DNA from: Nitrospirota bacterium
GTDB taxonomy: Bacteria; Nitrospirota; Thermodesulfovibrionia; Thermodesulfovibrionales; UBA6898
DNA: 64,000 nt
Assembly (NCBI GenBank): GCA_004321925.1
Contig: SCQH01000017.1
Coordinates: 32,276 to 96,275 of the forward strand
Direction: 5' to 3'
The notes under the pieces: model-generated
Seen by the model: only the letters and a program-made list of their open reading frames with translations
The model's database searches: none
What the model was told of the DNA's origin: nothing
Program-made: the position numbers and the translations under genes
Part shown: in pieces, positions 2,047 to 28,291 of the stretch
How the letters are laid out: the number at the start of each line of letters is the position of its first letter
Numbering within the stretch: the stretch's first letter is position 1

Positions 2047-2056
2047 AGGGTGACTA

Positions 2057-2614: not shown

Positions 2615-2620
2615 GTTCAA

Positions 2621-5095: not shown

Positions 5096-5132
5096 GACGA
5101 CAAACAGCCATAAATTAACCGGGAGGGTTGCT

Positions 5133-5699: not shown

Positions 5700-5708
5700 C
5701 GAGGCGTC

Positions 5709-5948: not shown

Positions 5949-5961
5949 AAATGGAGCAATG

Positions 5962-6501
5962 CTACGTGCCGTTATTTATGTCATTTTTTTCCAGCCGTTG
6001 ACAAGCTGGAAGAAAGAAACCATTCTTAAGACCCAGAAATGCTGCTGCTACTCTGTTTGAACAGTCAAGCTTCTCATAGATTTTGTCCAGGTAGCTGTTC
6101 ACTGTTTCTGGTGTTATCTTCATGGCGGCTGCTATTTCTTTGTTCGAAAACCCTTTTACGAGATAGCGGAGGACTTCTCTTTCTCTGTCGGTCAGAACGG
6201 GTTTTTCGCTTACTTGATCTGCATCAAGGCCTGTGAGAAATGCGATTACGCTGTTCCCGGGCAAGCGCATCATGGAGATGGTAATATCACCATAACGGAA
6301 GTTCTGCAGGTGAGCGGATCCGATCATAAGCCATTCCATAAGGTCCTTGAGAGGTATATTCCGTTCAGAAATAAAAACGTCTGCGTGATCGTTGAGCCAG
6401 TAACTGCCGTTGTCGTCAATCAATATAAGAGGTTTTGTTGTGGAAGCTTCTTCAACTGTCTTTAACGAGTCCTTTATTCTTGCCACTATCTTGTCATTCA
6501 T
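5962..6501 (-). CDS. LuxR-family transcriptional regulator with an unassigned ~110-aa N-terminal domain
   Basis: C-terminal HTH 'LTDREREVLRYLVKGFSNKEIAAAMKITPETVNSYLDKIYEKLDCSNRVAAAF'. Confidence 0.8.
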   Translation of the reverse strand: MNDKIVARIKDSLKTVEEASTTKPLILIDDNGSYWLNDHADVFISERNIPLKDLMEWLMIGSAHLQNFRYGDITISMMRLPGNSVIAFLTGLDADQVSEKPVLTDREREVLRYLVKGFSNKEIAAAMKITPETVNSYLDKIYEKLDCSNRVAAAFLGLKNGFFLPACQRLEKNDINNGT

Positions 6502-6793
6502 ATTCCCCTGTCCCCCGAATTATACGCTGTCTATATAATTGTTATTCGAAACGGAACTCAATTGAAATCCCCCATTTGGGGGCTTGCACTATCCATCCCT
6601 CGCTATTATCATAGCGCAATCACGAATAAATGCAATTTTAATTGAGGTTGAGGGGTTTCACGGTCGGCAGTTTAGTTTCGCTCTCCCGGATACATTTTGC
6701 AGATAATCTGACATTGTTAAATTGGCGTAACATCAGTGTACAGAAAATAAGCGTGAGCTGAAGACGGGTCACAAAAAGAAAGGCTTATATAGA

Positions 6794-10072: not shown

Positions 10073-11296
10073 ATGATCGCACAAATAGTCCTGCTTGCCG
10101 TTCTGCTGATCGTCCCGTCACTGTCGTATGGAGAAAAAGCAGCCTCCATCGACGAGCTTGTAAAGCGTTATGATTCCACAAGCTGTAAGCAATGCCATGC
10201 AGAGATCCATACCCAATGGGAGAGGTCGCATCATCATAAGACCCTTATCGGCACAAAAGGCAGGACCGCCTCGACCTGGGCAGCCTATCTGACGCTGGCG
10301 CTTCCGGAAGACAAGGTATTGAAGAAATCAGGGGTAAAGGATATAAAAGATGTGCAGTTCCGCCATATGAAACCCTGCACTGTCTGTCATCTGCCCCAGC
10401 TGGAGGATGCCACGGATGAGGTGGCAAATGAGGTGGCAAAGGCGATCGTCAATAATGATACCAAAATCCTTGAGAAGCTGAGCATCAATTGCATCATCTG
10501 TCATAACAAAAGGGCCATTGTCCGGCACTTCAGGGACGGCGACCCTGAAAAAGGGGTGATCTACGGGCCCCGGGGAATCGGCGCTCATGGTGACAAGGGT
10601 TTCCCGACCGCAAAGAAAAGCAATATCATGACCGACCCTGCCTTCTGCGGACAGTGCCATTCAGGGCCGAACCTGATAGGGTTTGATGAGCCGATGTACT
10701 GTGTATCCAACTTCGACAGCTATCTCCACGGGTATGTCCCGCTGGGGAAGACCGAAACCTGTCAGGACTGCCATATGAGGGGAGAGAACCTCGGCCATTC
10801 GTTCCCGCCTGTTTACGACGATGAGAAACTTACCGTGGAGAGGCTGAAAAAATGGATAGACCTGGAGGTTTCCACCCTCGGCTATGAATTCAGGCCGACA
10901 GTGCAGAGCCTGGTCCCTGGGGTCGTCATAAAGACAAAGGTGACAAGCCGCATCGGTCACCGGTATCCTGACGGCTGCCCGTCGCCAAACAGGGTCACCC
11001 TCGACGTGCTGGTCAGGGATGCGGGGGGCAAAGAGCTTTTTAAGGACCAGAAGATATATATGCCCCAATCGGGCAATGGCTACAGCCAGGCAATGGTCTA
11101 TGGCGCTTTTGCTAAGCTCGGTCTGCTGCGCGATACGAGTCTCCAGCCCTTTATGCCGGCCCAGGAGACCTTTGAGATCAAACTTCCGGAAGAGGTGAGA
11201 AAGGTAGTGGCAGAGGTAAAGCTTGTCTTTCGGCATCTGCCGGGAGATGAGGTCGTTATCCATAAAGTGACCAGAGAGGTAAGCCTGGACCGGTAG
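10073..11296 (+). CDS. Periplasmic multiheme (five CxxCH) c-type cytochrome
   Basis: Signal peptide 'MIAQIVLLAVLLIVPSLSYG'. Heme-binding motifs: CKQCH, CTVCH, CIICH, CGQCH, CQDCH. Confidence 0.85.
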   Translation: MIAQIVLLAVLLIVPSLSYGEKAASIDELVKRYDSTSCKQCHAEIHTQWERSHHHKTLIGTKGRTASTWAAYLTLALPEDKVLKKSGVKDIKDVQFRHMKPCTVCHLPQLEDATDEVANEVAKAIVNNDTKILEKLSINCIICHNKRAIVRHFRDGDPEKGVIYGPRGIGAHGDKGFPTAKKSNIMTDPAFCGQCHSGPNLIGFDEPMYCVSNFDSYLHGYVPLGKTETCQDCHMRGENLGHSFPPVYDDEKLTVERLKKWIDLEVSTLGYEFRPTVQSLVPGVVIKTKVTSRIGHRYPDGCPSPNRVTLDVLVRDAGGKELFKDQKIYMPQSGNGYSQAMVYGAFAKLGLLRDTSLQPFMPAQETFEIKLPEEVRKVVAEVKLVFRHLPGDEVVIHKVTREVSLDR

Positions 11297-12522: not shown

Positions 12523-13338
12523 ATGTGCGAGTTTTGTACGAAACACGGTGACGGCAAGATCTGGTATAAGAATGCCTCCAACTATTCGCAGGACCTGCTG
12601 TCCGATCTGAACAGGCGGCGCTATATCGGCAGCTTTTTCGAGGAGACCATCCAAAACGGGTTTGAGACGCTCGGCAGGCTTGAGACCATCGTCCGCAAAA
12701 AGGGCCGCCTGCCCGAGCAGGTGAAAAGAGCCATGGCAGAGCGGGCGAAGGCCGAACACTTCGGCCAGGTACTCCCGCTTGAAGAGATCCGTGACCTGGT
12801 GATGAGGTCCGCCACGATCGTCCGCATGCCCTGTGCCTGCCGGTGGGCCGCTGACAAAAAAGAACTGCGCTGCTGTTATGGCATCAGTTTCGGCCCTGAT
12901 CCCTGGTACAAGGGCTGTGATATGAGTTATTTCGGCACGTCCCCGGATGCCGGCCTCGAGGCGCTTTCGCGCGAGGAGGCTGTCGGGCAGATGGAGGAGC
13001 TCGAGGCCTATGGCGCAATCCATACGATATGGACCCTGATGACGCCTTTTATCGGCTCGATCTGCAACTGCTCTCTCCGGGATTGTCTTGCCATGAGAAC
13101 GCTGACCGGGATAGGGGTTGAGACCATGGCGCGGGCTGAATATGTTGCACAGCTGGACGAGGGCCGCTGCTCCGGCTGCGGACTCTGCACTGAACGCTGT
13201 CAGTTCAGTGCCATTGACTCTGTCGTGAAAGGCGGCCGGGATATTCCGGTCATCGACCCTGCCCGGTGTTTTGGCTGCGGTCTCTGCCGGCAGACCTGCC
13301 CTGTAGAAGCGCTTGCCCTGGTCCCGAGACATTCTTAG
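12523..13338 (+). CDS. 4Fe-4S dicluster domain protein with a Cys-rich N-terminus
   Basis: 'CSGCGLCTERCQFSAI' and 'CFGCGLCRQTCPVEAL' are ferredoxin motifs. The N-terminus is 'MCEFCTKHGDGKIWY'. This frame is preferred over the overlapping minus-strand ORF 12421..13356. Confidence 0.75.
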   Translation: MCEFCTKHGDGKIWYKNASNYSQDLLSDLNRRRYIGSFFEETIQNGFETLGRLETIVRKKGRLPEQVKRAMAERAKAEHFGQVLPLEEIRDLVMRSATIVRMPCACRWAADKKELRCCYGISFGPDPWYKGCDMSYFGTSPDAGLEALSREEAVGQMEELEAYGAIHTIWTLMTPFIGSICNCSLRDCLAMRTLTGIGVETMARAEYVAQLDEGRCSGCGLCTERCQFSAIDSVVKGGRDIPVIDPARCFGCGLCRQTCPVEALALVPRHS

Positions 13339-13494
13339 TGCCGTTCCCTGCCGCAAGCCCGCACCTTACTGATTAGGATTATTTATTTGTTGATAGATTT
13401 TCCTTATTAGTCTAAAATACAGCATCACGACGCGGTAATTGCCCGAAGAAAAAAAGGTCTCCTGAGATCCTGCATATAAAAAGGGCGAGGTAAT

Positions 13495-16428
13495 ATGAGG
13501 CGCTATACACGGAACGTTCTGACATGGGTGAAGCTTATGTCACCTGTCCTTATCGCTATTCCCTTTTTCTTTGGCCTTGCACTTCTCGCCTTCCTCGGCA
13601 TTACGCAGCAGAAAAATATCGTTGCTGAGATCTTCCTCCAGAGGTCCACCGGGTACGAAAACAGTTCAAAGATCATGGGCGATATCACCGGCGTCCACCG
13701 AAGCATCCTTACAGCCCTTCGCAAGGATGCCGGAGCGCGGCCGGGACAGGAAGGGTCCGGCAGGGTAGCTGCCATTATTGATTTCATTCAGGGGATACTG
13801 TCCGGCACCGCTCTCCATGATAATGAGCGCCGGGGATATATGGTGCTCCTCGAAGAGATAAAAGAGTATAAAAAGCTGGCCGAAGCCGCGGAGGAGACTG
13901 CACGGAGTGAGGCGGTTGCTGCAGGGCTGAACGAGAGGTACCTGTCGGTGCTTACCCGGCTGCGGGCCCTCCAGAGCACCGAATATATGCTGACCAGGGA
14001 GAGCTACGAACTCTCGATGACGTCGTTTGCTGCAGCCCGCTGGACCCTTGTTCTGCTCGTTCTTGTCTCGGTTATCTTCTCTCTCTGGTTCACCCGCCTG
14101 ATGATGAACAGGAGAATAATCGGGCCGATCAGGCTGATCGAGCAGGCTGCCAGGAAGGTTACAGAGGGTGACCTCTCTTTTGATGTCGGCGCCGGGGGCA
14201 CCGATGATATAAAGGAGATGGGGGCGCTCCTGAATGAGGCCTTCGCGACCCTCGAAGGTGTCCTGCAGAGGATCAAGGAGTTATCAGACAGGATCCTGCT
14301 GGTGGTCGAGCAGGTCGAGGCAGAGTCTGCAAAGGTTCTCAGCGGCGCCGAGGCAGAGGCAGAGGCGACCAGCAGCATATCGAGTTCCGTCAATGAGCTC
14401 AATGCAACGGCAGCCGAGATCGCCGACAGTACGGAGGGGTTGACGGCCTCGGCCGGGGAGGCCTCAGCCTCGATCGAGCAGATGGTCTCGAGCATAAAGA
14501 GCATCAATGAAAGCCTGCAGGACCTCAACGGTCACGTGGAATCGACGTCCGCCTCAATAGAGCAACTCTCACAATCGATACAGGAGGTTGCCTCACATTC
14601 CGAGAACCTGGCAGGCACCTCCGTTGAAACGCTCAATACCATCTCCGAGATCGCAACGACGATCAGGGATGTTGAGGTGAAGGCGAGGGATTCTGCGCGG
14701 CTCTCGGCAGAGGTGACGAACGATGCCTCGACCCTTGGCATGGTCTCGATCCATAAGACTATCGAAGGCATCAGGAATATAGCCTCATCAGTCCGGGAGA
14801 CCTCTGAATGTATCCGTATCCTCGGCAACAGGTCAAAGGAGATCGAGGGCATCCTGAACGTTATCGAGTCGGTCAATGACGAGACGAACCTCCTCTCCCT
14901 CAATGCCGCGATCCTGGCTGCAGAGGCGGGCGAGCATGGCAAGGGGTTCGCTGTCGTGGCCGAAGAGATCAAAAATCTCTCGGACAGGACCGAGACCTCC
15001 ACCAAAGAGATAGAGGCGCTGATTAAGGCAGTCCAGCAGGAGATCGAAAATGCGGAGGAGAAGATGCATAAAGGCATCAACTCGGTGGCGGACGGACTGA
15101 GGCTGGCCCGTGAGGGAGAAAACGCCCTGAAGAAGATCCTGAGCAGTTCGCAAAAGGCCTCCGAGATGACCCTGTCGATAAAGCGGACCACTGAGGCGCA
15201 GGCGCTTTCAGCCCGCTTCGTAGAGCAGGCAACCCAGAGCATCAGGACCATGATCGAGAGCATAGCAAAAGAGACGGCGGAGCAGTCAAAGGGTGTCGTC
15301 CTGATCACTGACGCGGCTGACATGATGAAGAAACTGACACAGCAGGTCAGCAAGGCGACAGGGGAACAGGCCAGGAGCAGCGGGTTGATAGCCCAGATCA
15401 CGGAATTTGTCTCTGAAAAGAGCAAGCAGATATCCAAATCCCTGCTGGAACATAAGAAAGGCTCACAAAACATACTCAGCAGTGTCGAGGCGGTAAAGGA
15501 CATCCCTGAAGAGAACAAGAAGCTTGCCTTCAGGATCAGCAAGACCCTCTGGAACCTCCAGAAGGACGCCGAACTCCTGAAGGCCGAGATGGAGCGGTTC
15601 AAATTCTCGGCAAAAAAAGGGCAGTCGCTGCGGCTCGGCGTTGTCCCGCTCAAGGAACCGTCGGTCATGTTCAGGAAGTTCATGCCTTTTGCCGTTTATC
15701 TCACCGAAAGACTAGGCAGGAAGGTGGACCTCAAGGTCGCGATCGATATGGAGAGCGCGGTGAAGGATATCGGCCAGGATGAGACACAGATATGCGCCAT
15801 GGGCCCTGCAAACTATATCGAGGCCAATATGAAATACGGGGTGACCGTGATAGCCAAGGCACTGAGGAAAGGCAGGCCGTTCCATCATGCTGCTGTCGTG
15901 GTCAGGGAAAAATCGGACATGCTGGCGCTGAGGGACCTGAAAGGAAAGAGGCTGGCGCTGGGCAGCTCCGGTTCCTCGACCGGCCATATCATGCCGCTTG
16001 CGACGTTGAAGGATGCAGGCATATCAGTCCGTGATCTTCAGTATTTCGACTTTCTCGGGCATCATGAAAAAATAGCGCGGGCCGTGCTTGAGGGCGATTT
16101 TGATGCCGGGGTGCTCATCGATGAAGTGGCAGAGTCCTATATCCCCAAGGGCCTGAGGGTCCTGGCCCTTTCTATAGACATACCGGAATTCAATATCTGC
16201 TGTAACCCCTCGGTGGACAGGCAGACCAGAAAGACGATCCTGGAAGCGCTTACCGCCCTGAACATCTCAAGCCCCGCTGAGGCAGAGATACTTAAATCCC
16301 TCGGCAAGGACTGCACCGGCTTTGTGCCGGCCTATGACGAGGAATATGCGGTCTTTAAGGAAAAGACCCTCGCCATAGAGGCGGAGATCAGTACGGCACA
16401 GAGCCGCAGTCCCCAAAAGCGGTCCTGA
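13495..16428 (+). CDS. MCP-like transducer: 2 TM + HAMP + methyl-accepting signalling domain + C-terminal PhnD-type solute-binding domain
   Basis: TM segments '[21 protein letters not shown]' and '[17 protein letters not shown]'. HAMP '[22 protein letters not shown]'. Hairpin tip '[37 protein letters not shown]'. From ~15628, '[38 protein letters not shown]...GPANYIEA...GSSTGHIMP' is PhnD-like. Confidence 0.85.
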
Positions 16429-16540
16429 GGAGGACCGGGGGAACTTCACTGCCCCGGGACCTGGCCCGGTATTGTTTTTTTCAGGCAGCCGCCTTTATAG
16501 TAATTACGTTCAAAATCTAATCATATCCCAGGGGGTAGTT

Positions 16541-17749
16541 GTGGCAGTTCATGTGAAGAATCCGATAGTAGAGCTCGATGGAGATGAGATGACCAGGATC
16601 ATCTGGCATTCGATCAGGGAAAAACTGATCAAGCCGTTCCTGGACCTGGAATTAAAATATTTTGACCTTGGCATGAAGCACCGGGACGATACAGACGACC
16701 GGGTGACGGTCGAGGCGGCAGAGGCGATCAAGGAGTTCGGCGTCGGGGTGAAGTGTGCGACGATCACCCCCAACGCAGCCAGGGTTAAAGAATATGATCT
16801 CAAGCAGCAGTGGAAGAGCCCCAACGGGACGATCCGCTCCATCCTCGACGGGACGGTCTTCAGAAAACCGATCATTATAAAGAACATCCCCCCGGCAGTG
16901 GCAACATGGAAGAAGCCGATCATCATCGGCCGTCATGCCTATGGCGATATTTATAAGAACAGCGAACTGGTCGTTGATTCGGCCGGGACAGCCGAGATCG
17001 TCTTCACCCCCGCCTCCGGGGGTGAAAAGAAGGTGGTCAGGATCCATGACTTCAAGGGCCCCGGTGTTGTCATGGGGATGCATAACACCGAGAATTCCAT
17101 CAGGAGCTTTGCGCAGGCCTGCATCAACTATGCGGTGAGTGAGAAGATCGATATCTGGTTCGGCGCGAAGGACACGATATCGAAGCAGTATCACGGCTTC
17201 TTCCGGGACATCTTTGCCGGGGAGATCAAAAAGGCAGAAGGCCAGTTGCAGGAGGCAGGTATCCAGTACCGCTTTATGCTGATAGACGATGCGGTCGCCC
17301 AGGTGATGAAATCGTCCGGCGGCATGCTCTGGGCCTGTATGAACTATGATGGTGACGTGATGTCCGATATGGTCGCCTCAGGCTTCGGCAGCCTCGGACT
17401 GATGACCTCGGTGCTTGTCTCACCGGACGGGAAATTCGAGTATGAGGCTGCCCACGGGACGGTCATGAGGCATTACTATGAACACCTCAAGGGCAACCCT
17501 ACCTCGACAAATTCAGTTGCCTCGATCTTTGCCTGGACCGGGGCGATCGCAAAGCGCGGGGAGCTCGACCATACCCCCGAGGTCGTCAGCTTCGCACAGA
17601 CCCTCGAAAGAACGGTCATCGAAACGGTCGAAAGCGGTATTATGACCAAGGACCTGATGCTGATCGCCGCTCCGAAGGTTGACCGGTATGCCCTGACAGA
17701 AGAGTTCATCGATGTCGTCGCCGGACGGCTGGCAAAGGCGGTTGCGTAA
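16541..17749 (+). CDS. icd: NADP-dependent isocitrate dehydrogenase (monomer of the eukaryote-like dimeric type)
   Basis: '[17 protein letters not shown]', 'GVKCATITP', '[14 protein letters not shown]', 'IIGRHAYGD', '[12 protein letters not shown]'. The start is set to the in-frame GTG at 16541, behind GGGGG; the upstream extension is not IDH-like. Confidence 0.9.
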
Positions 17750-17752
17750 GGG

Positions 17753-18328
17753 CTATTCCTTTTTACCCCTGATCCACCAGTCGCTCTTGTCCGAAAACCA
17801 CCAGAGGGACGAGTCGGTCTCGAGGACCGTTGCCGCCAGCTCCCGCGCAACATCGGTCTTAAGCCTCTTGAGGGCGAATTCAAGCCACTCGTCGGCATAG
17901 GCGTTGCCGAGGTCCTTGCATTCTTTCAGCGCCAGGATCATCTCGAGCTGGTCAGCGTCATAGGCCAGTTGTGCCTCTATGGTCCTGCCCTCGAGGAATT
18001 CAAAGAGCGTGGCCCTGATGTCCTCACCGAAAGGCAGGGTGTCGGCCAGGTCATTGATCGCCTTCTTCTCATCCGCCTTGACATACTTTTTGTTGACGTA
18101 GTTCAGGTCGCCGGTCCGGGCCTCCGGGAGATCATGGAACAGGCACATCCTCAGAAGCTTGTCCGAATCCACATCCTTGACGAGATGCCCGAGGGTATAC
18201 CCGATGCAGACGGTCCTGAAGATATGCTCTGCCACAGACTCCGCGCCTGAGCCAAGGAACTGGAATCCCGACCGGGGCGTGCGCTTGAGCATCCCCGCCT
18301 CGAAGAGAAAATTAGCTATTCTTTTCAT
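17753..18328 (-). CDS. HD-domain phosphohydrolase (YfbR-like 5'-nucleotidase family)
   Basis: 'FLFEAGMLKRTPRSGFQFLG...ESVAEHIFR' and 'LFHDLPEARTGDLNYV'. The start is taken at the internal 'MKRIANF'. Confidence 0.8.
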   Translation of the reverse strand: MKRIANFLFEAGMLKRTPRSGFQFLGSGAESVAEHIFRTVCIGYTLGHLVKDVDSDKLLRMCLFHDLPEARTGDLNYVNKKYVKADEKKAINDLADTLPFGEDIRATLFEFLEGRTIEAQLAYDADQLEMILALKECKDLGNAYADEWLEFALKRLKTDVARELAATVLETDSSLWWFSDKSDWWIRGKKE

Positions 18329-18504
18329 AGTGATCCTTTTGATATATGGCTGTATGCGGTCTGCCGAGTACCTGAGACTGCCCATTGATATGCCTACATG
18401 ATAACAGATATTCTCCCGAGTCTCAAAAAACTATTCCGGCGCCGGGAGGTCTTCAGTAAATGCGGCGTCCTCTTCCCCTGAGTCCATAACCCGGAATATG
18501 AAAT

Positions 18505-18540
18505 AAAAAAAGGCGGGAGCCTGTAACACAGGCACCCGCC
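18505..18540 (-). terminator. Rho-independent terminator of the 18581..18871 gene
   Basis: Minus strand GGCGGGTGCCTGT-GTT-ACAGGCTCCCGCC (13-bp stem, one mismatch) followed by TTTTTTT. Confidence 0.6.
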
Positions 18541-18580
18541 TCAATAAATCAATGCTCTGTCTCTACCCGGTCTTTTTGTA

Positions 18581-18871
18581 CTAGCTTGCCAAGGCGGAGA
18601 GTATGGTCGCGGAAAGCTTAAATGAGCCTTTTTCCTCTTCCTTGACCATCTTGTAGAAATCACACTCCATGCAGTTGCTGAGCTTGCTGCCAAAGCTTCC
18701 CTGTGTCCTGCCGCCGCATTTTGTGTGGGGGATGGTCCAGCAGGCCCTGCCCCCGTTTATTCCATCATGTATGCCGTGCAGTTTGGTTTCCTTACAGACA
18801 GGACAGGCATCATCCCCCAGCGCAGTTGTACATCTCTCGCAGGATTTCACTTCCCAGCAATTTTTTTTCAA
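18581..18871 (-). CDS. 96-aa nine-cysteine protein with two CW motifs (resembles what I recall as the 'two-CW' domain), copy 1
   Basis: 'MKKNCWEVKSCERC...ACPVCKETKLHGIHDGINGGRACWTIPHTKCGG...CMECDFYKMVKEEEKGS'. It has its own terminator and is divergent from the PhnD-like gene. Confidence 0.75.
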   Translation of the reverse strand: MKKNCWEVKSCERCTTALGDDACPVCKETKLHGIHDGINGGRACWTIPHTKCGGRTQGSFGSKLSNCMECDFYKMVKEEEKGSFKLSATILSALAS

Positions 18872-19077
18872 GACCTGATCTCTCCCATAGCGTATTTGAG
18901 TACCAACGAAAACTTCGTTGCAGATATATGCGCTTTTATTATAAGTGAATCACTTTTCCCGGGGCAAATGAATTAATCTTATTATATCATATATTTTCTT
19001 TATATAATGCTTTCCCCTGGCCTATGAGTTTGTGATGTCTGAATATGCAGGGTCCTGGCTTTAAGCGTCAGACATTT

Positions 19078-19106
19078 TTGACAAGGAGCAGAATCTCTGA
19101 TATGTT
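19078..19106 (+). promoter_or_regulatory. Candidate sigma-70 promoter for the PhnD-like gene
   Basis: TTGACA (19078..19083), a 17-nt spacer, then TATGTT (19101..19106), about 65 nt upstream of the start codon. Confidence 0.3.
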
Positions 19107-19171
19107 GTAACTATACGTATCATGCGGCATCAACAAAATAATCCAAAGTCTGACATATGCAAGGAGGAAGT

Positions 19172-20035
19172 ATGATGGACTCAAGGATACAACAGTTTAC
19201 GGTTGCGATTCTGTTCGTAACCGCGATATTCGGCATAGGACCCGATCTGGCGTCTGCTGAGGTCAGGTTCGGTTTACTGCCCCGTCTGACCGCAGTCGAG
19301 ATGTTTGCAATGTTCAAACCCCTTGAGGAGTATCTCACCAAGGAGGTAGGAGAAAAGGTGAACATCGTAACGGCGAAAGATTTTGCCGCCTATAAAGAGA
19401 TGGTGACATCCGGGCAGGTCGATATCGGATTTGCAAATCCGCTTATCTATGTTGAGCTGAAAAAAAACATGGACCTGCTGCCCCTTGCGTTGGCATCGGA
19501 ATTGAAAGCGGGTACCAAATTCCGCGGGATCATCATTGCGAGGAAGGACAGCCCCATCAACAGCCTGCAGGACCTGAAGGGTAAAAAGCTGATATTTGTT
19601 GATAAGGATTCTGCTGCAGGGTATATCTTTCAGGTCCTCCTGCTCAGCAAAGCCGGAATGGATGTCCATAAAGATTTTGTTACCCTGCCCTTCGCAAAGA
19701 AACATGACAATGTCACTATTGCCGTGGTCAATGGCACAGCCGATGCCGGCGGCATTCGTGAGGATGACCTCGAGAAGATGAAGGGGAAGGTCGATATTTC
19801 GAAAATAAAGATAGTCGGCCATACCGAATATTTCCCTAATTGGCCTGTTTTTGCAACTCCCCGGCTGAACAGGGACACGGCGATGAAGATACAGGCAGCC
19901 CTGCTCAAGCTGAAGCCCAAGGACCCGCAGTCCGAAAAGATCCTGGGGAGCGCCAAGCTTGACGGTTTTACGACGGTAAGAGATAAAGACTATGATGAAC
20001 TGCGGAAGGCTGCAAAACTGGTGGGTGCGTATTAG
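19172..20035 (+). CDS. Periplasmic PhnD-family (phosphonate/oxyanion-type) substrate-binding protein with no adjacent ABC components
   Basis: AGGAGG at 19162..19167 favours the ATG at 19172 or 19175. Signal peptide '...VAILFVTAIFGIGPDLASA'. 'VRFGLLPRLTAVEMFAMFKPLEEYL', 'GQVDIGFANP', 'LKGKKLIFVDKDSAAGY'. Confidence 0.8.
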   Translation: MMDSRIQQFTVAILFVTAIFGIGPDLASAEVRFGLLPRLTAVEMFAMFKPLEEYLTKEVGEKVNIVTAKDFAAYKEMVTSGQVDIGFANPLIYVELKKNMDLLPLALASELKAGTKFRGIIIARKDSPINSLQDLKGKKLIFVDKDSAAGYIFQVLLLSKAGMDVHKDFVTLPFAKKHDNVTIAVVNGTADAGGIREDDLEKMKGKVDISKIKIVGHTEYFPNWPVFATPRLNRDTAMKIQAALLKLKPKDPQSEKILGSAKLDGFTTVRDKDYDELRKAAKLVGAY

Positions 20036-20069
20036 GGCCCGGAAAAGACCACTGCAGGAGTGATGGACC

Positions 20070-20291
20070 TTGAAACGGTTGTCCGAAGATGAGCTGAGAA
20101 AAGCCCCGGACTATGCAGAGCTGAAATGGTATAACGGCATCCCGGTGATCGTCAGCGCGCTAGGGGAGACCTGGAAGAGGGTGGCGGCTACGGAGGAGTA
20201 CTCGCCCTACTTCGTCGTTTCTGATGACGACGACGGGGATGATTTCTACGGCACCTATTCTGACGCTGAATCGATCGAGCCGAGCGAGTGA
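20070..20291 (+). CDS. Small acidic hypothetical protein (73 aa)
   Basis: TTG start 9 nt after GGAG. The C-terminal half is acidic ('VVSDDDDGDDFYGTYSDAESIEPSE'). No motif, so support is weak. Confidence 0.3.
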   Translation: MKRLSEDELRKAPDYAELKWYNGIPVIVSALGETWKRVAATEEYSPYFVVSDDDDGDDFYGTYSDAESIEPSE

Positions 20292-20299
20292 CGCGCTGC

Positions 20300-20587
20300 C
20301 TATTCAGTGTTCTTCGTGATCAGTCGTGTGCCGGCGATATAATAATTGCCGAGATTCCTGATCCATAGGACAACGCCGTGGCTGGACTCGCGGACCTGGT
20401 GTTTGAATTCAAGTACATATCCCGTTTTGAGCGGATACCGAGTGATAAGGCAGAGGCCGTTCCTAGATATGTTGATGGCCTTCCCTGTCAGGTCAAGAAA
20501 CTTCAGTCTCCCGTCTTTCAACACAACCACGGTATAGCTGATAAGGGCATGGAAGGGTTTTCTGTCAGAACTTCTGTCAGAAGCCAC
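20300..20587 (-). CDS. PilZ-domain-like small protein
   Basis: 'DRKPFHALISYTVV...GKAINISRNGLCLITRYPLKTGYVLEF' resembles the R/K...(D/N).S.GG PilZ pattern, although the N-terminal RxxxR motif is not clear. Confidence 0.5.
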   Translation of the reverse strand: MASDRSSDRKPFHALISYTVVVLKDGRLKFLDLTGKAINISRNGLCLITRYPLKTGYVLEFKHQVRESSHGVVLWIRNLGNYYIAGTRLITKNTE

Positions 20588-20858
20588 AGCACCTCCTGCA
20601 TTTTCTGTTTTGCTATCCCTGAAGAAAAATGATCAAGAACAGATCGGCTTAGTATCAGTATAAGCCCGGCTGCCGCCTGAGTCCACTTAAATATAGTTAA
20701 TGAAATCCGGCATGAACAGCCTCTAACCATCGTGCATTATTCATGGCGGTACATCCTGCCGCAACAATGATACCCGCCGTTTTTCCTGCCTGCATTTTTT
20801 GATTGTACCTCATATTTTATAACTGCTATGATAACACCATGTCTCAGGGCTATCTTCC

Positions 20859-23723
20859 ATGAGTTTTAAGAAAAGTCTGGAATTCAAAGTGCTCAGCGTC
20901 GTGGGGACGATACTCGTTGCCGGTGTTATTATCGCCTCTGTCATGTCTGTTTCGATCCAGAAAGAAACCCTCTACCGCGTCACCGAATTCAGCACGGAAA
21001 AGACGGCGGACGTCATCTTTCAGAACATAGAGACGACCATGATCGATGGCAAGGCCGATATCACAAAGAAGATCGTCGATAAGCTCAGCCGGATCAGGGG
21101 CATCGAGGAGATAACCGTTCTCAACGACGAGGGGCGCGAGGCATTTAAGCAGGACGCACCTGCCCGCGAAACCGCTGCCATGGCCGAACTGAAGTCCGGG
21201 AAGGAGCGGCTGGTCACGAGGGAAGGGGTCCGGCTGACCATGTATATGCCTTTGAAGAATACAGAGTCCTGTTTCTCCTGTCATGGGCAGGAAAAAAAGG
21301 TGCTTGGGGCGGTAAAGGTCGCCGTCACCATTGAGAAGGAATACCGGAAGGCGATGTCCCTTATAGCTCTGGTCATTGCCATCACGATCATCGCATCACT
21401 TGGCTTCAGTCTCCTGCTCTGGATCATGCTCAGAAAGATGGTCATCTCCCCGGTCAAATCCATCGCTGCCGCCGCTGCCACCATCGCTGAAGGTGACCTC
21501 TCCTTTAATGTGACAGCTCAGGGAGACGATGAAATAGGAAGGCTCAGCTCAGACCTTAAGGAGTCTTTTTCGGCCCTGGAGACCGTCCTCCAGCGGATCA
21601 AGGAGCTCTCTGCCAGGATCATGACGGTAGTGGAAGAGGTGGAACAGGAGGCGGTCAGGGTCATGAAGGGGGCCGAGGCCGAGGCCGAGGCTACCAGCAA
21701 CATATCGAGTTCCGTTGCTGAGCTCACTGTGACCACGACCGAGATCGCATTCAACACAGACGACCTGGCCGCTTCGGCGGGGAATGCCTCAGCCTCGATT
21801 GACGAGATGGTTTCGAGCATCAGGCATATCAACGAGAGCATTCAGGAACTCGACGGGATCGTGGATTCGACATCCGCTTCCATAGGACAGCTTTCCTCAA
21901 CGATCAAAGAGGTTGCGGACAGTTCGGCAGAACTTTCCGTCGCCTCGGATGAGACCCTTGCCGCGATCAGTGAAATAGCAGCCGCGATAAGGGAGGTCGA
22001 AGCCAGCGCAAAGGATTCCGCGGCCCTGTCTGAACAGGTGGCAAGCGACGCCTCGACCCTGGGCATGGCCTCGATCGCCAAGACCGTTGAAGGAATGAAA
22101 GAGATTGAGTCGTCCGTTCAGAACACGGCCCAGTGCATAAGCGCGCTGGGAAACAGGTCCAAGGAGATCGAGAAGATACTGGGTGTCATCCAATCGGTGA
22201 ACGATGAGACTGGCCTGCTCTCCCTCAATGCCGCAATACTGGCGTCCAAGGCCGGGGAGCACGGCAGGGGGTTCGCTATTGTCGCCTCGGAGATGAAGGA
22301 CCTCTCGCAGAGGACGGAAACTTCCACGGGGGATATAGCGGCCCTTATCCGGGCGGTCCAGAATGAGGTGGTAAACGCTGAACGTGCTATGAACAAAGGC
22401 GTCCGTGCTGTTGAAACGGGCCTTGTGCTGACGCAGGAGGCCTACGAGGCATTGAGCAACGTCCTTGGCAGTTCCCGGAAAGCCTCTGAGATGACCCTCT
22501 CGATAAAACGCTCAACGACGGAGCAGGCGAAGGCCGCCGGACAGGTGATGGAGGCTACTGAGCGCGTGAAGAAGATGATAGAGACCATTGCCGGCGCTAC
22601 CCGGGATCAGGCGAAGGGCATCGAGGTCATCTCTGCGGCGGCTGAGAGGATGAAAAAACTCTCCTTTGAGGTGAGCAAGGCAACAGCAGAGCAGGCGACA
22701 AGCAGCGGGCAGATCGCTGAGGCAACTGAAACCGTCTCGGAGAAGAGCCGCCAGATATCAAGGTCCCTGAGTGAGCAGAAGACGGGCGCCGACAGCATTC
22801 TGACCAGCATCGAGGAGGTCAAGGACATACCCGTCGCAAACAAGAACCTGGCCTCAAGGATAAGCGCCACGATATGGAACCTCCAGAAAGATGCAGTGCT
22901 TCTTAAGGCCGAGTTGGAGCGGTTCAGGTTCTCTGAAAAGGGCAGTCAGTCGCTGCGGCTCGGGGTGGTTCCCCTGCAGGACCCCTCTGTCATGTTCAGG
23001 AAATTCAGCCCTCTGGCCAAATACCTCAGCGGGAAAATAGGGAAAAAGGTGGACCTCAGGGTCGCCATTGATATGGAAAGCGCGGAGAAAGACCTGGGGG
23101 AGAACACGACTCAGTTCTGCGCCATGGGCCCGGCAAACTATGTGAATGCCAACCTGAAATACGGGGTCAGGGTGGTTGCAAGGGCCTTGCGAAAAGGCAA
23201 GCCCTTCCACCGCGCCGCTATCGTTGCAAAGGAAGACTCCGGACTGCAGACCCTCAAGGACCTGAAGGGCAAGACCTTTGCCTTTATGAAGAAGGGTTCC
23301 GCAACCGGGCATATCATGCCGCTGGCTTCGCTCAAAGAGGCAGGGATCGGCATGGGCGACCTCAGCCGCCACGCATTCCTCGGGGCCAATGAGAAGATCA
23401 TCTCAGCGATCCTCTCCGGTCAGTTTGATGCCGGGGCACTGACCGAGGAAGCCGCAGTGGACTGCGCAGGGAAAGGGCTGACGGTCCTCAGGTTCTCTGC
23501 CGAAATACCGGAGTTCAATATCTGCTGCAATTCCTCTCTCGATGCCGGGACCGTTGACGCGATCAGGGACGCCCTGCTGTCCCTCGACCTCAGCAGAAAG
23601 GAAGACTCCGAGGTCCTGCTGTCGCTGGGAAGGGATTGTACCGGGTTTGTCAGGGCCGCTGAAAGTGACTACGTTGACTTCAGGAGGATACTGATGAGCA
23701 TTGATGCGGAGCACGGATCGTAG
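20859..23723 (+). CDS. MCP-like transducer, paralogue of 13495..16428, with a CxxCH motif in the extracytoplasmic sensor segment and a C-terminal PhnD-type domain
   Basis: TM 'VLSVVGTILVAGVIIASVMSV' and 'LIALVIAITIIASLGFSLLLWIML'. 'CFSCH' at 21270..21284. HAMP '...IAEGDLSF'. Hairpin tip '[37 protein letters not shown]'. From 22953, '[25 protein letters not shown]...GPANYVNA...GSATGHIMP...PEFNICCN'. Confidence 0.85.
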   Translation: MSFKKSLEFKVLSVVGTILVAGVIIASVMSVSIQKETLYRVTEFSTEKTADVIFQNIETTMIDGKADITKKIVDKLSRIRGIEEITVLNDEGREAFKQDAPARETAAMAELKSGKERLVTREGVRLTMYMPLKNTESCFSCHGQEKKVLGAVKVAVTIEKEYRKAMSLIALVIAITIIASLGFSLLLWIMLRKMVISPVKSIAAAAATIAEGDLSFNVTAQGDDEIGRLSSDLKESFSALETVLQRIKELSARIMTVVEEVEQEAVRVMKGAEAEAEATSNISSSVAELTVTTTEIAFNTDDLAASAGNASASIDEMVSSIRHINESIQELDGIVDSTSASIGQLSSTIKEVADSSAELSVASDETLAAISEIAAAIREVEASAKDSAALSEQVASDASTLGMASIAKTVEGMKEIESSVQNTAQCISALGNRSKEIEKILGVIQSVNDETGLLSLNAAILASKAGEHGRGFAIVASEMKDLSQRTETSTGDIAALIRAVQNEVVNAERAMNKGVRAVETGLVLTQEAYEALSNVLGSSRKASEMTLSIKRSTTEQAKAAGQVMEATERVKKMIETIAGATRDQAKGIEVISAAAERMKKLSFEVSKATAEQATSSGQIAEATETVSEKSRQISRSLSEQKTGADSILTSIEEVKDIPVANKNLASRISATIWNLQKDAVLLKAELERFRFSEKGSQSLRLGVVPLQDPSVMFRKFSPLAKYLSGKIGKKVDLRVAIDMESAEKDLGENTTQFCAMGPANYVNANLKYGVRVVARALRKGKPFHRAAIVAKEDSGLQTLKDLKGKTFAFMKKGSATGHIMPLASLKEAGIGMGDLSRHAFLGANEKIISAILSGQFDAGALTEEAAVDCAGKGLTVLRFSAEIPEFNICCNSSLDAGTVDAIRDALLSLDLSRKEDSEVLLSLGRDCTGFVRAAESDYVDFRRILMSIDAEHGS

Positions 23724-23743: not shown

Positions 23744-24538
23744 TCAGCCCCGAGGTCCCCGCGGTTCTCCTGTCAGCTCCTCCACGAACCTTTCCAGGAG
23801 ATAGGCAAGGTATTCTATGTCTATATGATCTTCCGCGCCGCTGTCGAACAATATCCTGCAATCAGGGGCAAATTCATCATCGGCCTGCCAGCATGAAAGA
23901 TAAAGCGGAACGCGGGGAAGAAGGTCAAAACAGGCGGTATAATCAGCCCGGGTCCTGCCTTCAATAGCGGTCCCTCCCATCTCAGCACAGCGCAGCATGA
24001 GCCGTTCAAGGTCGTTCCCGAAGGTCTCCGTGATCTTCTTCTCCGCACTGGCCTGGAAGGCCTTGACGTGGGAGGCGGTGTGCGGGAAATTGCCGAGGCT
24101 GCACCATTCACCCGTTAGCGGCTTTCTCCCCTGCCTGCGGACATAGTCGTAGATAATGATCTTTGTCCATGCATCACGGCAGTATGTATTATCCAGGAAC
24201 AGACCGTCCTTACGCATCTCGTAATGCCGGGTAAGCATTGTCAGTTTTATGACCTCTCTGCCGTCACGGGAGAGGTATTCGCCCCCCACGGCCTCTGCAG
24301 CCCCTCTGAATTCTATCTTTACCGCTTCTCTTTCAAGGTCATTGCTCACCTGCCCGTAACTGCTGAAGGCCGATGCCGTCTGCTGAGATTCGGCTTCTCC
24401 GGAGGTTTCGCTTTCTGCAAAAGGGCAATCTTCCAGACGTGCCAGTGATTTTTTCACCTTCAGGGCAAAGGCCATGCAGGTTGCCTCTCCGCACCTGCCG
24501 CAGTTCGTACCCGGAAGTTTCCTGTATATGGTCAACAT
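23744..24538 (-). CDS. Fe-S protein with a corrinoid-Fe-S-protein-like N-terminal cluster motif, followed by a DUF3786-like region
   Basis: 'LPGTNCGRCGEATCMAFALKVKKSLARLEDCP' gives C-x2-C-x4-C-x16-C, as in the N-terminus of CODH/ACS gamma (CFeSP large subunit). Confidence 0.6.
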   Translation of the reverse strand: MLTIYRKLPGTNCGRCGEATCMAFALKVKKSLARLEDCPFAESETSGEAESQQTASAFSSYGQVSNDLEREAVKIEFRGAAEAVGGEYLSRDGREVIKLTMLTRHYEMRKDGLFLDNTYCRDAWTKIIIYDYVRRQGRKPLTGEWCSLGNFPHTASHVKAFQASAEKKITETFGNDLERLMLRCAEMGGTAIEGRTRADYTACFDLLPRVPLYLSCWQADDEFAPDCRILFDSGAEDHIDIEYLAYLLERFVEELTGEPRGPRG

Positions 24539-26583: not shown

Positions 26584-27492
26584 TTATTTTTTCTTAAGAT
26601 TGTAGGTTTTCAGGTTAATGCCGGCTTTTTTTGCCAACTCAAAGACATTTTTATAGTCTTCATGCACGTCTGCAGCAGCATATCCTGTTATATCCAGGTT
26701 CTTCAGAATGGCCCTGCCTTCGGTGTCCCCATGCATTTCAAGCAGGGTCTTCCTGACAGCGCTCCGGATATCAGGGGGTACGGACTTTCCCAGAAACAGG
26801 CCGTGAGAAGGGAATTCCGGAGATTCATCAATAATTTTCAGTTCTTTCTCGATACGCGGATTGGCAGCTTGCAATGAAGAATAAACCGTGCTCTTTGCCA
26901 CCCCGACATCGACCCGCCCGTTAAGCACTGCAATAATTGCAGCATCATGGCTGCCGGCAAAATAGTGCTCGCTGAAAAATGTGGAGATATTGGTTATTCC
27001 ATGACGTCCGAGATAGGCCAGCGGGTAAATATATCCGCAGGAAGACCCTTTATCAATGAAAACCATGGACTTTCCCTTCATGTCGGCCGCATTATTGATC
27101 CTGCTGTCCTTTCTCACAAAGATATGCCCGTGATAGGTAGTCTTCCCCCCGATGGAAATAGACCGCACCAGTGCTTCGGCGCCAAGCCTTTCATGGGCAA
27201 CGGCACCTGACAGGGATCCAAAAAAGGCACCGTCGATGCCTCCTGACAGCATAGTGTTTATAACACTGCCGTAATCGCTCAGGACCAATATGCTGACCTT
27301 TATGCCGGTCTTGCTGTTTATATAGTGAGCCAATGCATTATATTTCTGATTTTGCCTGAAGATATTTTGCTCGGGGATAATACCGATCCGAAGCTCGGAG
27401 GCCTTAATCTCAGGATATGAAAAAGCAGGATTGCAAAGACTTGAAGCTATGAATAGAACAGCAATTATGAACGTGCGCCGGAGCAATGACAT
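26584..27492 (-). CDS. Periplasmic PhnD-family substrate-binding protein, second orphan copy
   Basis: Signal peptide 'MSLLRRTFIIAVLFIASSLCNPAFS'. 'LRIGIIPEQNIFRQNQKYNALAHYI', 'GGIDGAFFGS', 'MKGKSMVFIDKGSSCGYIYP'. No permease or ATPase gene is nearby. Confidence 0.8.
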   Translation of the reverse strand: MSLLRRTFIIAVLFIASSLCNPAFSYPEIKASELRIGIIPEQNIFRQNQKYNALAHYINSKTGIKVSILVLSDYGSVINTMLSGGIDGAFFGSLSGAVAHERLGAEALVRSISIGGKTTYHGHIFVRKDSRINNAADMKGKSMVFIDKGSSCGYIYPLAYLGRHGITNISTFFSEHYFAGSHDAAIIAVLNGRVDVGVAKSTVYSSLQAANPRIEKELKIIDESPEFPSHGLFLGKSVPPDIRSAVRKTLLEMHGDTEGRAILKNLDITGYAAADVHEDYKNVFELAKKAGINLKTYNLKKK

Positions 27493-27814: not shown

Positions 27815-28105
27815 CTAGGTTCTCAGCTTAGACAGTATGGTGGCTGAAAGCTGATACGAACCTTTTTCCTCTTCTTTTACCAGCTTATAAAAATCGCACT
27901 CCATACAGATACGGAGCTCCTTGGCGAAATCTCCGTGACCGCTGCCCCCGCATTTTGTGTGGGGAACGGTCCAGCAGGCCCTGCCCCCGTTGATGCCGTC
28001 ATGCGTCCCGTGTAATTTCGTCTCTTTGCAGACAGGACAGGCGTTGCTCCCGGAGACCGATCCGCATCTCCCGCAGGATTTTACTTCCCAGCAATTTGCT
28101 TTCAT
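27815..28105 (-). CDS. 96-aa nine-cysteine two-CW-motif protein, copy 2
   Basis: The start is at the ATG at 28103..28105, behind GGGGGGA plus 7 nt. 'MKANCWEVKSCGRC...ACPVCKETKLHGTHDGINGGRACWTVPHTKCGG...CMECDFYKLVKEEEKGS'. It aligns without gaps to 18581..18871. Confidence 0.75.
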   Translation of the reverse strand: MKANCWEVKSCGRCGSVSGSNACPVCKETKLHGTHDGINGGRACWTVPHTKCGGSGHGDFAKELRICMECDFYKLVKEEEKGSYQLSATILSKLRT

Positions 28106-28291
28106 GGTTCGATCCCCCCGGAAAGAAGTTACTGACTCTGAATCCATAATAATCAGTATATCTACTAATTATAATTTTAGGAAAATGAATTATTTTTATT
28201 GATCCATTAGTGCATTTTATGTTTTTCCTCTGTTTCGAGGGGGTGACATGAGCGAAGTCGAAAGGCTGCTTAAAGCACCAACTGCTGGTCG

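Follow-up and report, generated by a model that had tools for sequence, protein, structure and literature searches.

Two chemoreceptors of a Nitrospirota bacterium end in a cytoplasmic PhnD/PtxB-like binding-protein domain

Methyl-accepting chemotaxis proteins (MCPs) with a cytoplasmic sensor domain at the C-terminus are an established kind of receptor, for instance DcrH with its hemerythrin domain and the proteins that carry a CZB domain, such as TlpD. In DcrH of Desulfovibrio vulgaris a periplasmic domain, HAMP and the MCP domain are followed by the cytoplasmic sensor (PMC13401364), as in the two receptors described in this study, and the route of the signal from the C-terminal domain to the MCP domain is unresolved (PMC13401364). 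The sensor itself is a four-helix diiron hemerythrin that binds O2, whereas ours is a bilobed flytrap, and the ligand chemistry and likely motion differ. CZB is the most populated family of sensors placed C-terminal to the signalling domain (PMC7390727). The zinc-binding CZB receptors and the PilZ receptors share with our pair a cytoplasmic sensor of small molecules or ions after the signalling domain, but they use other folds and ligands, many of the CZB receptors are soluble, and none has a binding-protein fold. Ortega & Krell 2020 (PMC7390727, Supp. Fig. 2) list Pf12974 among at least 17 domain types C-terminal to MCPsignal, with no function given, and describe C-terminal-LBD receptors as a “poorly characterized chemoreceptor subfamily” (PMC7390727). 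The domain order of that entry is identical to that of our receptors; the entry is a Pfam listing without topology, heptad class, pocket, phylogenetic distribution, gene context or function. It was all that a literature search on Phosphonate-bd domains with chemoreceptors, on C-terminal LBDs and on the 64H class with HEAT proteins returned; the architecture was without an assigned function, an outcome in favour of the original prediction. The architecture is thus not new, and the receptors reported here add members to a catalogued, uncharacterised kind.

Binding proteins of the same fold are best known from transport. PtxB, HtxB and PhnD, which serve phosphite, hypophosphite and phosphonate ABC transporters, share both the Pfam family and the fold of our C-terminal domain, although the latter has no signal peptide, no ABC partner genes and is fused to a receptor. 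AioX (with AioS) and ArrX are members of PF12974 employed for arsenite/arsenate sensing and not for transport (PMC8050422), and are structural neighbours of the fused domain, but these are periplasmic proteins in their own right, each docking on a histidine kinase. An intracellular precedent is offered by the NrtA-like protein NasS (PMC3795266), which has a solute-binding protein (SBP) fold, has lost its export signal and serves signal transduction as a cytoplasmic sensor of the oxyanions nitrate and nitrite; it is however free-standing, belongs to a different SBP family, acts on an ANTAR antiterminator (NasS-NasT) and works apart from any chemoreceptor. The original prediction had noted that such folds normally act outside the cytoplasm and that here one follows a cytoplasmic signalling hairpin. 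The placement was borne out, but NasS shows that the rule is not exclusive, and the novelty of the present finding is lower on this account as well as through the earlier catalogue entry.

The window, by which we mean the whole 64,000-nucleotide stretch of contig SCQH01000017.1 (assembly GCA_004321925.1) that was analysed, encodes the two receptors, MCP-A (13495..16428, 977 aa) and MCP-B (20859..23723, 954 aa). All features given below lie on the forward strand. The coordinates and lengths first proposed for both open reading frames proved correct, every motif quoted with them was found, and Pfam and hydropathy analysis recovered in each the order foreseen: a transmembrane segment (TM), an extracytoplasmic segment, a second TM, HAMP, an MCP hairpin and a PhnD-type domain, which in MCP-A amounts to a helical periplasmic domain ahead of a 64H hairpin and PF12974, and in MCP-B to the same architecture with a different periplasmic sensor. 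A chemoreceptor ending in a cytoplasmic binding-protein domain is a real design, and a rare one. From TM2 to the end the two proteins are 59% identical over 783 aa (BLASTP), while their periplasmic parts give no alignment, again as anticipated. Upstream of MCP-A there is a sigma-70-like promoter match (13390..13418; 10/12 positions), and a terminator-like hairpin with a T-run directly follows its stop (16454..16469); both are weak indications.

Only two hydrophobic segments are present in each protein (Kyte-Doolittle, 19-aa window), as had been claimed: in MCP-A approximately residues 18-36 (TM1, 13546..13602, peak 2.68) and 185-203 (TM2, 14047..14103, peak 2.31), and in MCP-B approximately residues 11-29 and 168-186. 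Both TMs are flanked by Lys/Arg at their cytoplasmic ends, and HAMP follows TM2, a two-TM, N-in topology (MCP-A HAMP: residues 204-254, 14104..14256, PF00672, 35.5 bits; MCP-B HAMP: residues 191-240, 21429..21578, Pfam). Between the TMs, MCP-A has a segment without a Pfam match (approximately residues 37-184, 13603..14046) which is probably all-helical, a suggestion from a single-sequence model whose pLDDT of 58 is too low for structure search. MCP-B carries instead a predicted haem-c PAS-like sensor (20946..21359; PF21563, 39.7 bits against a cut-off of 27), homologous to the sensor domains of GSU0582 and GSU0935 (PDB 3b47, E 1.3e-5; also 3b42), with a CFSCH motif (C138..H142, 21270..21284) that aligns with CQSCH of 3b47 and 3b42 and is the predicted site of haem c attachment. 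GSU0582 and GSU0935 are themselves MCPs with this type of periplasmic sensor, but have no C-terminal binding-protein domain.

The signalling region of both receptors is an MCPsignal domain (PF00015; residues 412-584 in MCP-A and 395-573 in MCP-B; 121.1 and 121.7 bits against a cut-off of 34.6) within a long coiled-coil hairpin, which spans residues 255-704 in MCP-A (14257..15606, tip Glu480) and 241-691 in MCP-B (21579..22931, tip Glu467). The predicted canonical tip, LLSLNAAI..AGEHGxGFAVVA, is present in both and invariant across 32 relatives. The arms, with 226+224 residues around E480 and 227+224 around E467, are symmetric and comprise some 64 heptads, and their length, together with co-linearity with plain MCPs of 64H length, would place both receptors in the 64H (40+24H) class. 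The MCP methylation-site consensus is [ASTG][ASTG]xx[EQ][EQ]xx[ASTG][ASTG]; applied strictly, it matches once in MCP-A (at residue 324) and not at all in MCP-B, and shuffled sequences do no worse. The 64H (40+24H) class is named in PMC3543383, PMC8235581 and PMC9796306; Tran et al. 2008 (PMC2577667) discuss neither this class nor C-terminal domains. Plain 64H MCPs of Geobacter, Desulfuromonas and Nitrospirota have the long hairpin in common with our receptors but lack the C-terminal binding-protein domain. Hundreds of such plain MCPs, of approximately 700 aa, match MCP-A only to about residue 704 and then end, and at one related locus (L012) a plain 64H MCP lies beside a fused one and aligns with residues 187-703 of MCP-A before the alignment stops. 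Since the plain receptors end where the fused domain begins, the binding-protein domain would seem to have been appended to a complete receptor.

The claim that the last approximately 250 residues adopt a binding-protein fold is supported by profile searches as well as by structure prediction and comparison. PF12974 (Phosphonate-bd) matches residues 714-951 of MCP-A and 701-938 of MCP-B (181 and 180 bits; E 2e-53 and 5e-53), and its profile is covered end to end (1-242 of 242) in both. We delimit the PhnD/PtxB-like type II domain as residues 712-955 of MCP-A (15628..16359; Pfam, AlphaFold, Foldseek) and approximately residues 699-942 of MCP-B (22953..23684; Pfam, family alignment). The AlphaFold (AF2) model of the C-terminal domain has a pLDDT of 93.1 and a pTM of 0.85, and Foldseek matches it at probability 1.0 to the type II fold of PtxB, PhnD, HtxB, ArrX and AioX (PtxB 5o2j, E 8e-25; TM-scores of 0.82-0.83 for HtxB and ArrX). 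The best sequence matches are likewise PtxB, HtxB and PhnD (E 1.5e-19). With the TIGR01098 model MCP-A scores 107.4 and MCP-B 115.2, below and above the cut-off of 112.05, while the PhnD equivalog model (TIGR03431) gives 92.2 and 94.0 bits and its cut-off of 261.1 is not reached. As the PhnD, selenate-type, SsuA, TAXI and TtrS subfamily models all score far under their cut-offs, no ligand specificity can be transferred to the fused domain. In the AF2 model the last signalling helix runs to about residue 705 and is followed by approximately 6 coil residues and then beta-1. Among 32 family members the linker measures 5-12 aa in the 64H group and approximately 0 in the short-MCP group, so by the model the binding-protein domain would be joined to that helix with almost no flexibility.

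Of the pocket residues of PtxB, some are retained in this domain and others replaced. In PtxB oxygen is bound by Y49, Y94, S124-T125-S126, H155 and a capping Tyr (Ps_PtxB numbering; PMC5700983). At the pocket positions MCP-A has L719, M752, H797, S827-S828-T829, H857 and F899, with C902 conserved, and MCP-B has M, H, S814-A815-T816, N and F, Asn844 replacing the otherwise conserved His. Of the STS-H anion motif of PtxB (PMC5700983) the fused domain keeps S..H, and the Ser and His scaffold of the site survives in MCP-A. Both pocket tyrosines are gone from MCP-A, MCP-B and the rest of their group (Y49 to M752, Y94 to H797), as are the capping Tyr, now Phe, and the latch Asp (D16), now Leu. Across the fused proteins, which are 26-59% identical overall, the equivalents of S124 and H155 are retained in 31 of 32 and the hinge/cap segment in 29 of 32, and a DAG motif, Y774, P834, S893 and F899 are conserved as well. 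The short-MCP group has Y49, Y94, S124, T125 and H155 almost intact. Given these losses, and the Asn in place of the conserved His and the Ala in the S-T-S loop of MCP-B, at least MCP-B may have a very different ligand or none.

Relatives of the two receptors fall into at least 35 clusters at 50% identity, a lower bound resting on the best 150 matches listed, and almost all come from Nitrospirota MAGs; no relative among those found is from a cultured organism. Their fused PF12974 domains form essentially one clade in a neighbour-joining (NJ) tree, which suggests that the fusion arose once. The two orphan PF12974 genes of the window were considered as the source of the fused domain and rejected, as they are only 26-27% identical to it and distant in the NJ tree. 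Between MCP-A and its homologues, identity is 56-66% in the binding-protein domain, 54-65% in the coiled-coil arms and 11-25% in the periplasmic domain; conservation of the appended domain as strong as that of the arms, and far above that of the periplasmic domain, points to selection. Consistent with the original prediction, Pfam identified no cheA, cheW, cheY, cheR or cheB among approximately 50 open reading frames of the window, and tblastn of the window with CheA, CheW, CheY, CheR and CheB of a related che cluster found only the two MCP genes. Relatives are nevertheless located in che clusters: L011 has the order CheY-CheA-ATPase-CheW-[fused MCP]-MCP-CheW-HEAT-CheR-RR-CheB-GAF-RR, L012 the order fused MCP-64H MCP-CheW-HEAT-CheR..GAF-RR, and L013 a CheW downstream of the fused MCP, which argues for a genuine chemosensory role. 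No ABC permease or ATPase gene adjoins the window copies, whose neighbours encode an Fe-S protein, an isocitrate/isopropylmalate dehydrogenase, an HD protein and a DUF3786 protein. A BLASTP comparison of 10 related loci with the window's open reading frames found nothing in common except the MCP, so no operon partner can be proposed for the window copies; the neighbours at L003, L008 and L009 are unrelated by Pfam and include a helicase, an RR-PilZ protein, HDOD, PALP and a TupA/PstS-like SBP.

Could the binding-protein domain nonetheless be an ordinary periplasmic sensor of the SBP type, brought outside by an unrecognised membrane passage or export? Its nearest stand-alone relatives (P0122 and P0176) have signal peptides, and the two orphan PF12974 proteins of the window are secreted. 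In both receptors, however, the domain is internal, comes after the cytoplasmic hairpin and has neither TM nor signal peptide. Beyond residue 260 the Kyte-Doolittle maximum is only 1.07 in MCP-A and 1.18 in MCP-B, hence there is no third TM; just 6 residues of linker separate the domain from a helix that has to pair within the cytoplasmic bundle, and a reducing compartment fits the four unpaired Cys, the family-conserved C902 among them. The C-terminal domain of both receptors must be cytoplasmic, a recognised sensor fold following MCPsignal without an intervening TM (Pfam, hydropathy, AF2), and an extracytoplasmic position is very unlikely. Nor is the fusion an artefact of assembly or annotation or a decaying gene, the least credible of the alternatives: a homologue at L011 is broken into three calls in three frames, but two intact copies occur in the window, intact orthologues of 950-994 aa occur at 8 independent MAG loci, and approximately 24 representatives of the 50%-identity clusters cover both halves among the matches listed. 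Uninterrupted reading frames conserved across genomes refute it.

Alternatively, the domain might be catalytic, like the enzymes THI5/NMT1, which have the type II fold in common with it. Weak secondary matches to NMT1 and NMT1_3 (23-27 bits) could be taken this way, as could the presence of Thi5 far down the Foldseek ranking (rank 49-50, TM 0.45). Yet PF12974 scores 180 bits against approximately 25 for NMT1, every one of the top structural matches is a binding protein of transport or sensing and no catalytic context is apparent, so that this too is highly improbable. A more serious competitor, if still an unlikely one, is that the domain has given up small-ligand binding and now serves protein-protein contacts at the end of the receptor nearest the membrane, where it might organise 64H arrays, take over from a C-terminal pentapeptide the docking of adaptation enzymes, or contact another membrane protein. 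A number of the canonical pocket residues of PtxB have been substituted, and MCP-B is without the conserved His; the MCP C-terminus is the usual tether site for CheR/CheB (PMC7390727), and neither receptor ends in the aromatic pentapeptide. Weighing against such a module, the near-invariance of the S124/H155 equivalents and of the hinge/cap in so divergent a family is the pattern that a retained pocket predicts, and the short-MCP group has the site of PtxB almost complete.

We therefore favour, with a probability of roughly 0.6, the reading that MCP-A and MCP-B are dual-input chemoreceptors in which the cytoplasmic flytrap domain senses a small intracellular anion. The first input would enter through the periplasmic domain, all-helical in MCP-A and haem-c PAS-like in MCP-B, and the second through the Venus-flytrap domain of the PhnD/PtxB family, attached where the last signalling helix ends. 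Because the arms of the hairpin are equal, this domain would sit beside HAMP, just under the membrane. There it may bind a small ligand present inside the cell, with an oxyanion the best candidate, and closure of its lobes might change how the C-terminal helix packs, or the tension in it, where the four-helix bundle lies closest to HAMP; on the coupling itself we can only speculate. The altered helix would then shift the control of CheA at the tip, an effect that would be combined with the periplasmic signal, and output would presumably pass through CheA and CheW proteins whose genes lie elsewhere in the genome.

A bolder version, which we offer tentatively and hold somewhat doubtful, is that these would be the first chemoreceptors shown to measure an intracellular solute by means of a flytrap clamped to the signalling helix, in which a cytoplasmic oxyanion is compared with, or gates, the periplasmic signal and the paralogues read different ligands. 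The oxyanion would be phosphate, phosphite or a sulfur oxyanion, its periplasmic partner a redox or ligand signal, and the difference between the paralogues would lie in His857 of MCP-A as against Asn844 of MCP-B. Should it be true, the rigid attachment beside HAMP would provide a natural system for studying how an input at the C-terminal end of the bundle governs a kinase 32 heptads away.

The NCBI pipeline names these receptors of 950-990 aa [quoted passage not shown], a receptor mislabelled as a transporter component, and genome surveys by annotated name could be affected; NasS is prone to the same misannotation (PMC3795266). Even for DcrH it is unresolved how chemoreceptors read the inside of the cell and by what route a domain beyond the hairpin passes its signal on to it. 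With its well-understood open/closed motion and the ease of ligand screening, the binding-protein domain represents a tractable handle on post-hairpin signalling, and possibly also on taxis governed by intracellular anions or energy status in anaerobic Nitrospirota.

The two receptor genes are intact open reading frames on the + strand, MCP-A at 13495..16428 (977 aa) and MCP-B at 20859..23723 (954 aa), just as the original prediction had them. In each, Pfam recognizes a HAMP domain (aa 204-254 of MCP-A, 191-240 of MCP-B), an MCPsignal domain (aa 412-584 and 395-573; 121 bits vs a cut-off of 34.6) and a C-terminal Phosphonate-bd domain, PF12974 (aa 714-951 and 701-938), matched over the whole profile (1-242 of 242) at E ~1e-53. 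A Kyte-Doolittle scan gave only two hydrophobic segments per protein, the cytoplasmic ends of both TMs being bordered by basic residues; no third segment was found, with all values past residue 260 at or below 1.2 in both proteins, in agreement with the proposal that no TM separates the signalling domain from the C-terminal domain. From TM2 to the C-terminus MCP-A and MCP-B share 59% identity (783 residues), whereas no alignment is obtained for their periplasmic parts, which bears out the predicted similarity from HAMP onwards and the unrelated sensors. Split at the tip Glu, the coiled-coil arms are of 226 and 224 residues in MCP-A (E480) and 227 and 224 in MCP-B (E467), that is 64 heptads, the MCP class named 64H or 40+24H (PMC9796306, PMC3543383, PMC8235581). 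Since the arms are equal, the chain has come back to the end of the bundle nearest the membrane by the point where the PBP domain starts.

The AlphaFold2 model of MCP-A aa 676-977 (29-sequence alignment; pLDDT 93.1, pTM 0.85) comprises a long helix and, after six residues outside any helix, a two-lobe domain of alternating beta/alpha order. Foldseek matched it in the PDB, at probability 1.0, to PtxB, PhnD, HtxB, ArrX, AioX and XAC2383, with TM-scores up to 0.83, and a sequence search found PtxB (5o2j, E 1.5e-19). Model, structural matches and sequence match support a PBP fold, and its cytoplasmic placement is supported likewise; the central claim of a cytoplasmic PBP-fold domain thus stands, on Pfam, AlphaFold2 and Foldseek for the fold and on hydropathy for the placement. 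We note that the domain is not an ABC-transporter component, because it lacks an export signal, no ABC permease or ATPase is found among the neighbours of MCP-A or MCP-B, and the PhnD equivalog model scores 92-94 bits in the two proteins vs a cut-off of 261. All named family members are called [quoted passage not shown] at NCBI, including chemoreceptors of 610-990 aa such as MBI4710425.1, MCL5062407.1 and MDA8146374.1. The name comes from TIGR01098, whose cut-off MCP-B narrowly passes, and for these chemoreceptors it is a systematic misnaming.

When MCP-A aa 400-977 was searched against 1.84 billion cluster representatives, at least ~24 aligned over the 64H hairpin as well as the PBP, and in at least ~10 MCPs of lesser length (610-700 aa) the same PBP came straight after a signalling domain that is likewise shorter; a third group consisted of hundreds of plain ~700-aa MCPs, in which alignment and protein stop at MCP-A residue ~704. 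MCPsignal and PF12974 occur together in all 32 aligned fused members, and the linker from helix to strand is short, of 5-12 residues in those with the long signalling domain (64H group) and ~zero in those with the shorter one (short-MCP group). In a rough NJ tree nearly all fused PBPs form one clade, the secreted SBP P0122 (a stand-alone relative with a signal peptide) is sister of the short-MCP group, and the orphan SBPs encoded in the window itself lie far from the fused clade. Named members are nearly all from Nitrospirota, one being labelled Bacillota, and intact homologues of 950-994 aa are present in eight of ten related loci, all from Nitrospirota/Thermodesulfovibrionales MAGs.

For the binding pocket, the phosphite-binding residues of Ps_PtxB (PMC5700983) were carried by HMMER alignment onto the 32-member family alignment. 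S124 corresponds to S827 in MCP-A and S814 in MCP-B (S in 21/22 of the 64H group and 9/9 of the short-MCP group), T125 to S828 and A815 (T in 14/22 and 8/9) and S126 to T829 and T816 (S in 16/22, G in 8/9). H155 corresponds to H857 in MCP-A and N844 in MCP-B, the latter being the sole exception in the 64H group (H in 21/22, and in 9/9 short MCPs). Y49 is replaced by M752 and M739 (F in 13/22, Y in 9/9), Y94 by H797 and H784 (H in 14/22, Y in 8/9), the capping Tyr by F899 and F886 (F in 20/22 and 8/9) and the latch D16 by L719 and L706 (L in 16/22 and 5/9); C902, a Cys three positions past the cap, is kept in 28 of the 32 members. The scaffold of the pocket looks maintained in this alignment, and this speaks for a ligand that is small and anionic. 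Neither the specificity of PtxB nor that of PhnD can be transferred to the domain, and the ligand specificities of MCP-A and MCP-B probably differ from each other.

The data show the architecture, the fold, the location, the short linker, the conservation of the domain and, in relatives, the che linkage. As the more likely reading of them we propose that the PBP domain would bind a small anion in the cytoplasm, that closure of its lobes would act on the C-terminal helix at the point where this lies against the output helices of HAMP, and that the on/off equilibrium would thereby be shifted and the shift passed on to the hairpin tip. Alternatively, the domain might have lost small-ligand binding and serve as a protein-protein module, for which the altered pocket speaks, above all in MCP-B, and against which the maintained scaffold may be set; we consider this unlikely. 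An extracytoplasmic C-terminal domain, an enzymatic domain or an artefact are each weakly supported or refuted, the hydropathy profile, the structural matches and the recurrence of the fusion being the observations that bear on them.

No che genes were found in the window, either by Pfam on ~50 ORFs or by tblastn with che queries from L011, the locus of a more distant relative, as had been predicted; the surroundings are housekeeping chromosome (gyrA, gidA/B, mreBCD, PBP2/rodA, ribonucleotide reductase), and no neighbours are conserved between the window and the ten related loci. Three more distant relatives do lie in chemosensory clusters, ordered CheY-CheA-ATPase-CheW-fused MCP-MCP-CheW-HEAT protein-CheR-RR-CheB-GAF-RR in L011 and fused MCP-64H MCP-CheW-HEAT-CheR..GAF-RR in L012, with CheW downstream of the fused homologue in L013. 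These clusters connect the fused family with a CheA/CheW pathway that includes adaptation enzymes. The L011 receptor (L011:5869-8723) is split into three ORFs in three frames (sensor plus HAMP, MCPsignal, PBP), by either sequencing frameshifts in the metagenome assembly or decay of the gene. A conserved 657-aa HEAT-repeat protein stands between CheW and CheR (L011:11266-13239, L012:4107-6080), beyond the HEAT/CheR section come a GAF protein and response regulators of a single domain, and both clusters house fused and plain 64H MCPs; this looks like a pathway of its own, associated with 64H receptors. A response-regulator-PilZ fusion (L003:12288-13004) is encoded two genes downstream of the A-type homologue in L003; L004, L006 and L007 have ORFs at this position that are alike by size, and the window has no such gene.

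The window also encodes two secreted stand-alone PF12974 proteins, at 19157..20035 (+) and 26584..27492 (-) (292 and 302 aa), each with a hydrophobic signal-like segment at the N-terminus, no adjoining ABC permease or ATPase and only 26-27% identity to the fused domains. One of the genes is 824 bp upstream of MCP-B, an adjacency not kept in L008 or L009, and these proteins may be orphan SBPs with a role in signalling to receptors. Each adjoins one of two small paralogous Cys-rich ORFs without Pfam match (18581..18871 (-), 96 aa; 27815..28147 (-), 110 aa; pattern NCWEVKSC..CPVCKETKLHG..CMECDFYK), of which a homologue with 45-48% identity (L009:11843-12139) lies ~0.9 kb downstream of the MCP-B orthologue. 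A 95-aa ORF between orphan SBP and MCP-B (20300..20587 (-)) has RxxxR / NxSxxG-like motifs and scores 17.8 bits for PilZ, below the cut-off of 22.5; it could encode a small receptor for c-di-GMP, or not be a gene at all. Redox genes flank the receptors, namely a multihaem c-type cytochrome-like ORF (10073..11296 (+)), a 4Fe-4S dicluster protein (12523..13338 (+)), whose gene stops 157 bp short of the MCP-A start, and a DUF3786 plus Fe-S protein (23744..24538 (-)) convergent with MCP-B, an association not kept in the related loci. Positions 2001..8000 have a G+C of 0.44-0.48 vs ~0.55 elsewhere, hold ORFs of 824, 185 and 188 aa without family matches, a LuxR-type regulator and a PAS protein, and may be acquired DNA.

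MCPs that carry a cytoplasmic sensor domain at the C-terminus are an already established type, as with the hemerythrin domain of DcrH (PMC13401364) and the CZB and PilZ domains (PMC7390727), and NasS is a precedent for an SBP-like anion sensor in the cytoplasm (PMC3795266). Ortega & Krell 2020 already listed Pf12974 and five other SBP families among the domains that follow MCPsignal, and called MCPs with such C-terminal domains poorly characterised (PMC7390727). We found no ligand or function assigned to the MCPsignal-Pf12974 architecture in the literature, and the genes of the window are therefore further members of a catalogued architecture. The present analysis extends what is on record for it by assigning the receptors to the 64H class, describing a rigid junction, placing nearly all fused PBPs from both MCP length classes in one clade, showing how the pocket has diverged (with His changed to Asn in MCP-B), linking the family to che clusters and pointing out the misannotation.

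At the periplasmic end the N-terminal sensors of the 32 fused members are variable (Mcp40H-20_sensor in seven, 4HB in one, Cache types in a few), many having no recognised sensor family. The periplasmic domain of MCP-A, helical in a low-confidence model, has no family match, and that of MCP-B matches PF21563 and is homologous to the haem-c PAS-like sensors GSU0582/GSU0935 of Geobacter (3b47, 3b42). Its predicted haem-c attachment motif CFSCH (21270..21284, aa 138-142), absent from the original prediction, aligns with CQSCH of 3b47/3b42. MCP-B would by this match join a periplasmic redox or gas-type haem sensor to a cytoplasmic flytrap. Between MCP-A and its homologues identity is 56-66% in the PBP, 54-65% in the coiled-coil arms and 11-25% in the periplasmic domain; judged by this conservation, the family keeps its C-terminal domain as a constant input and varies the periplasmic one.
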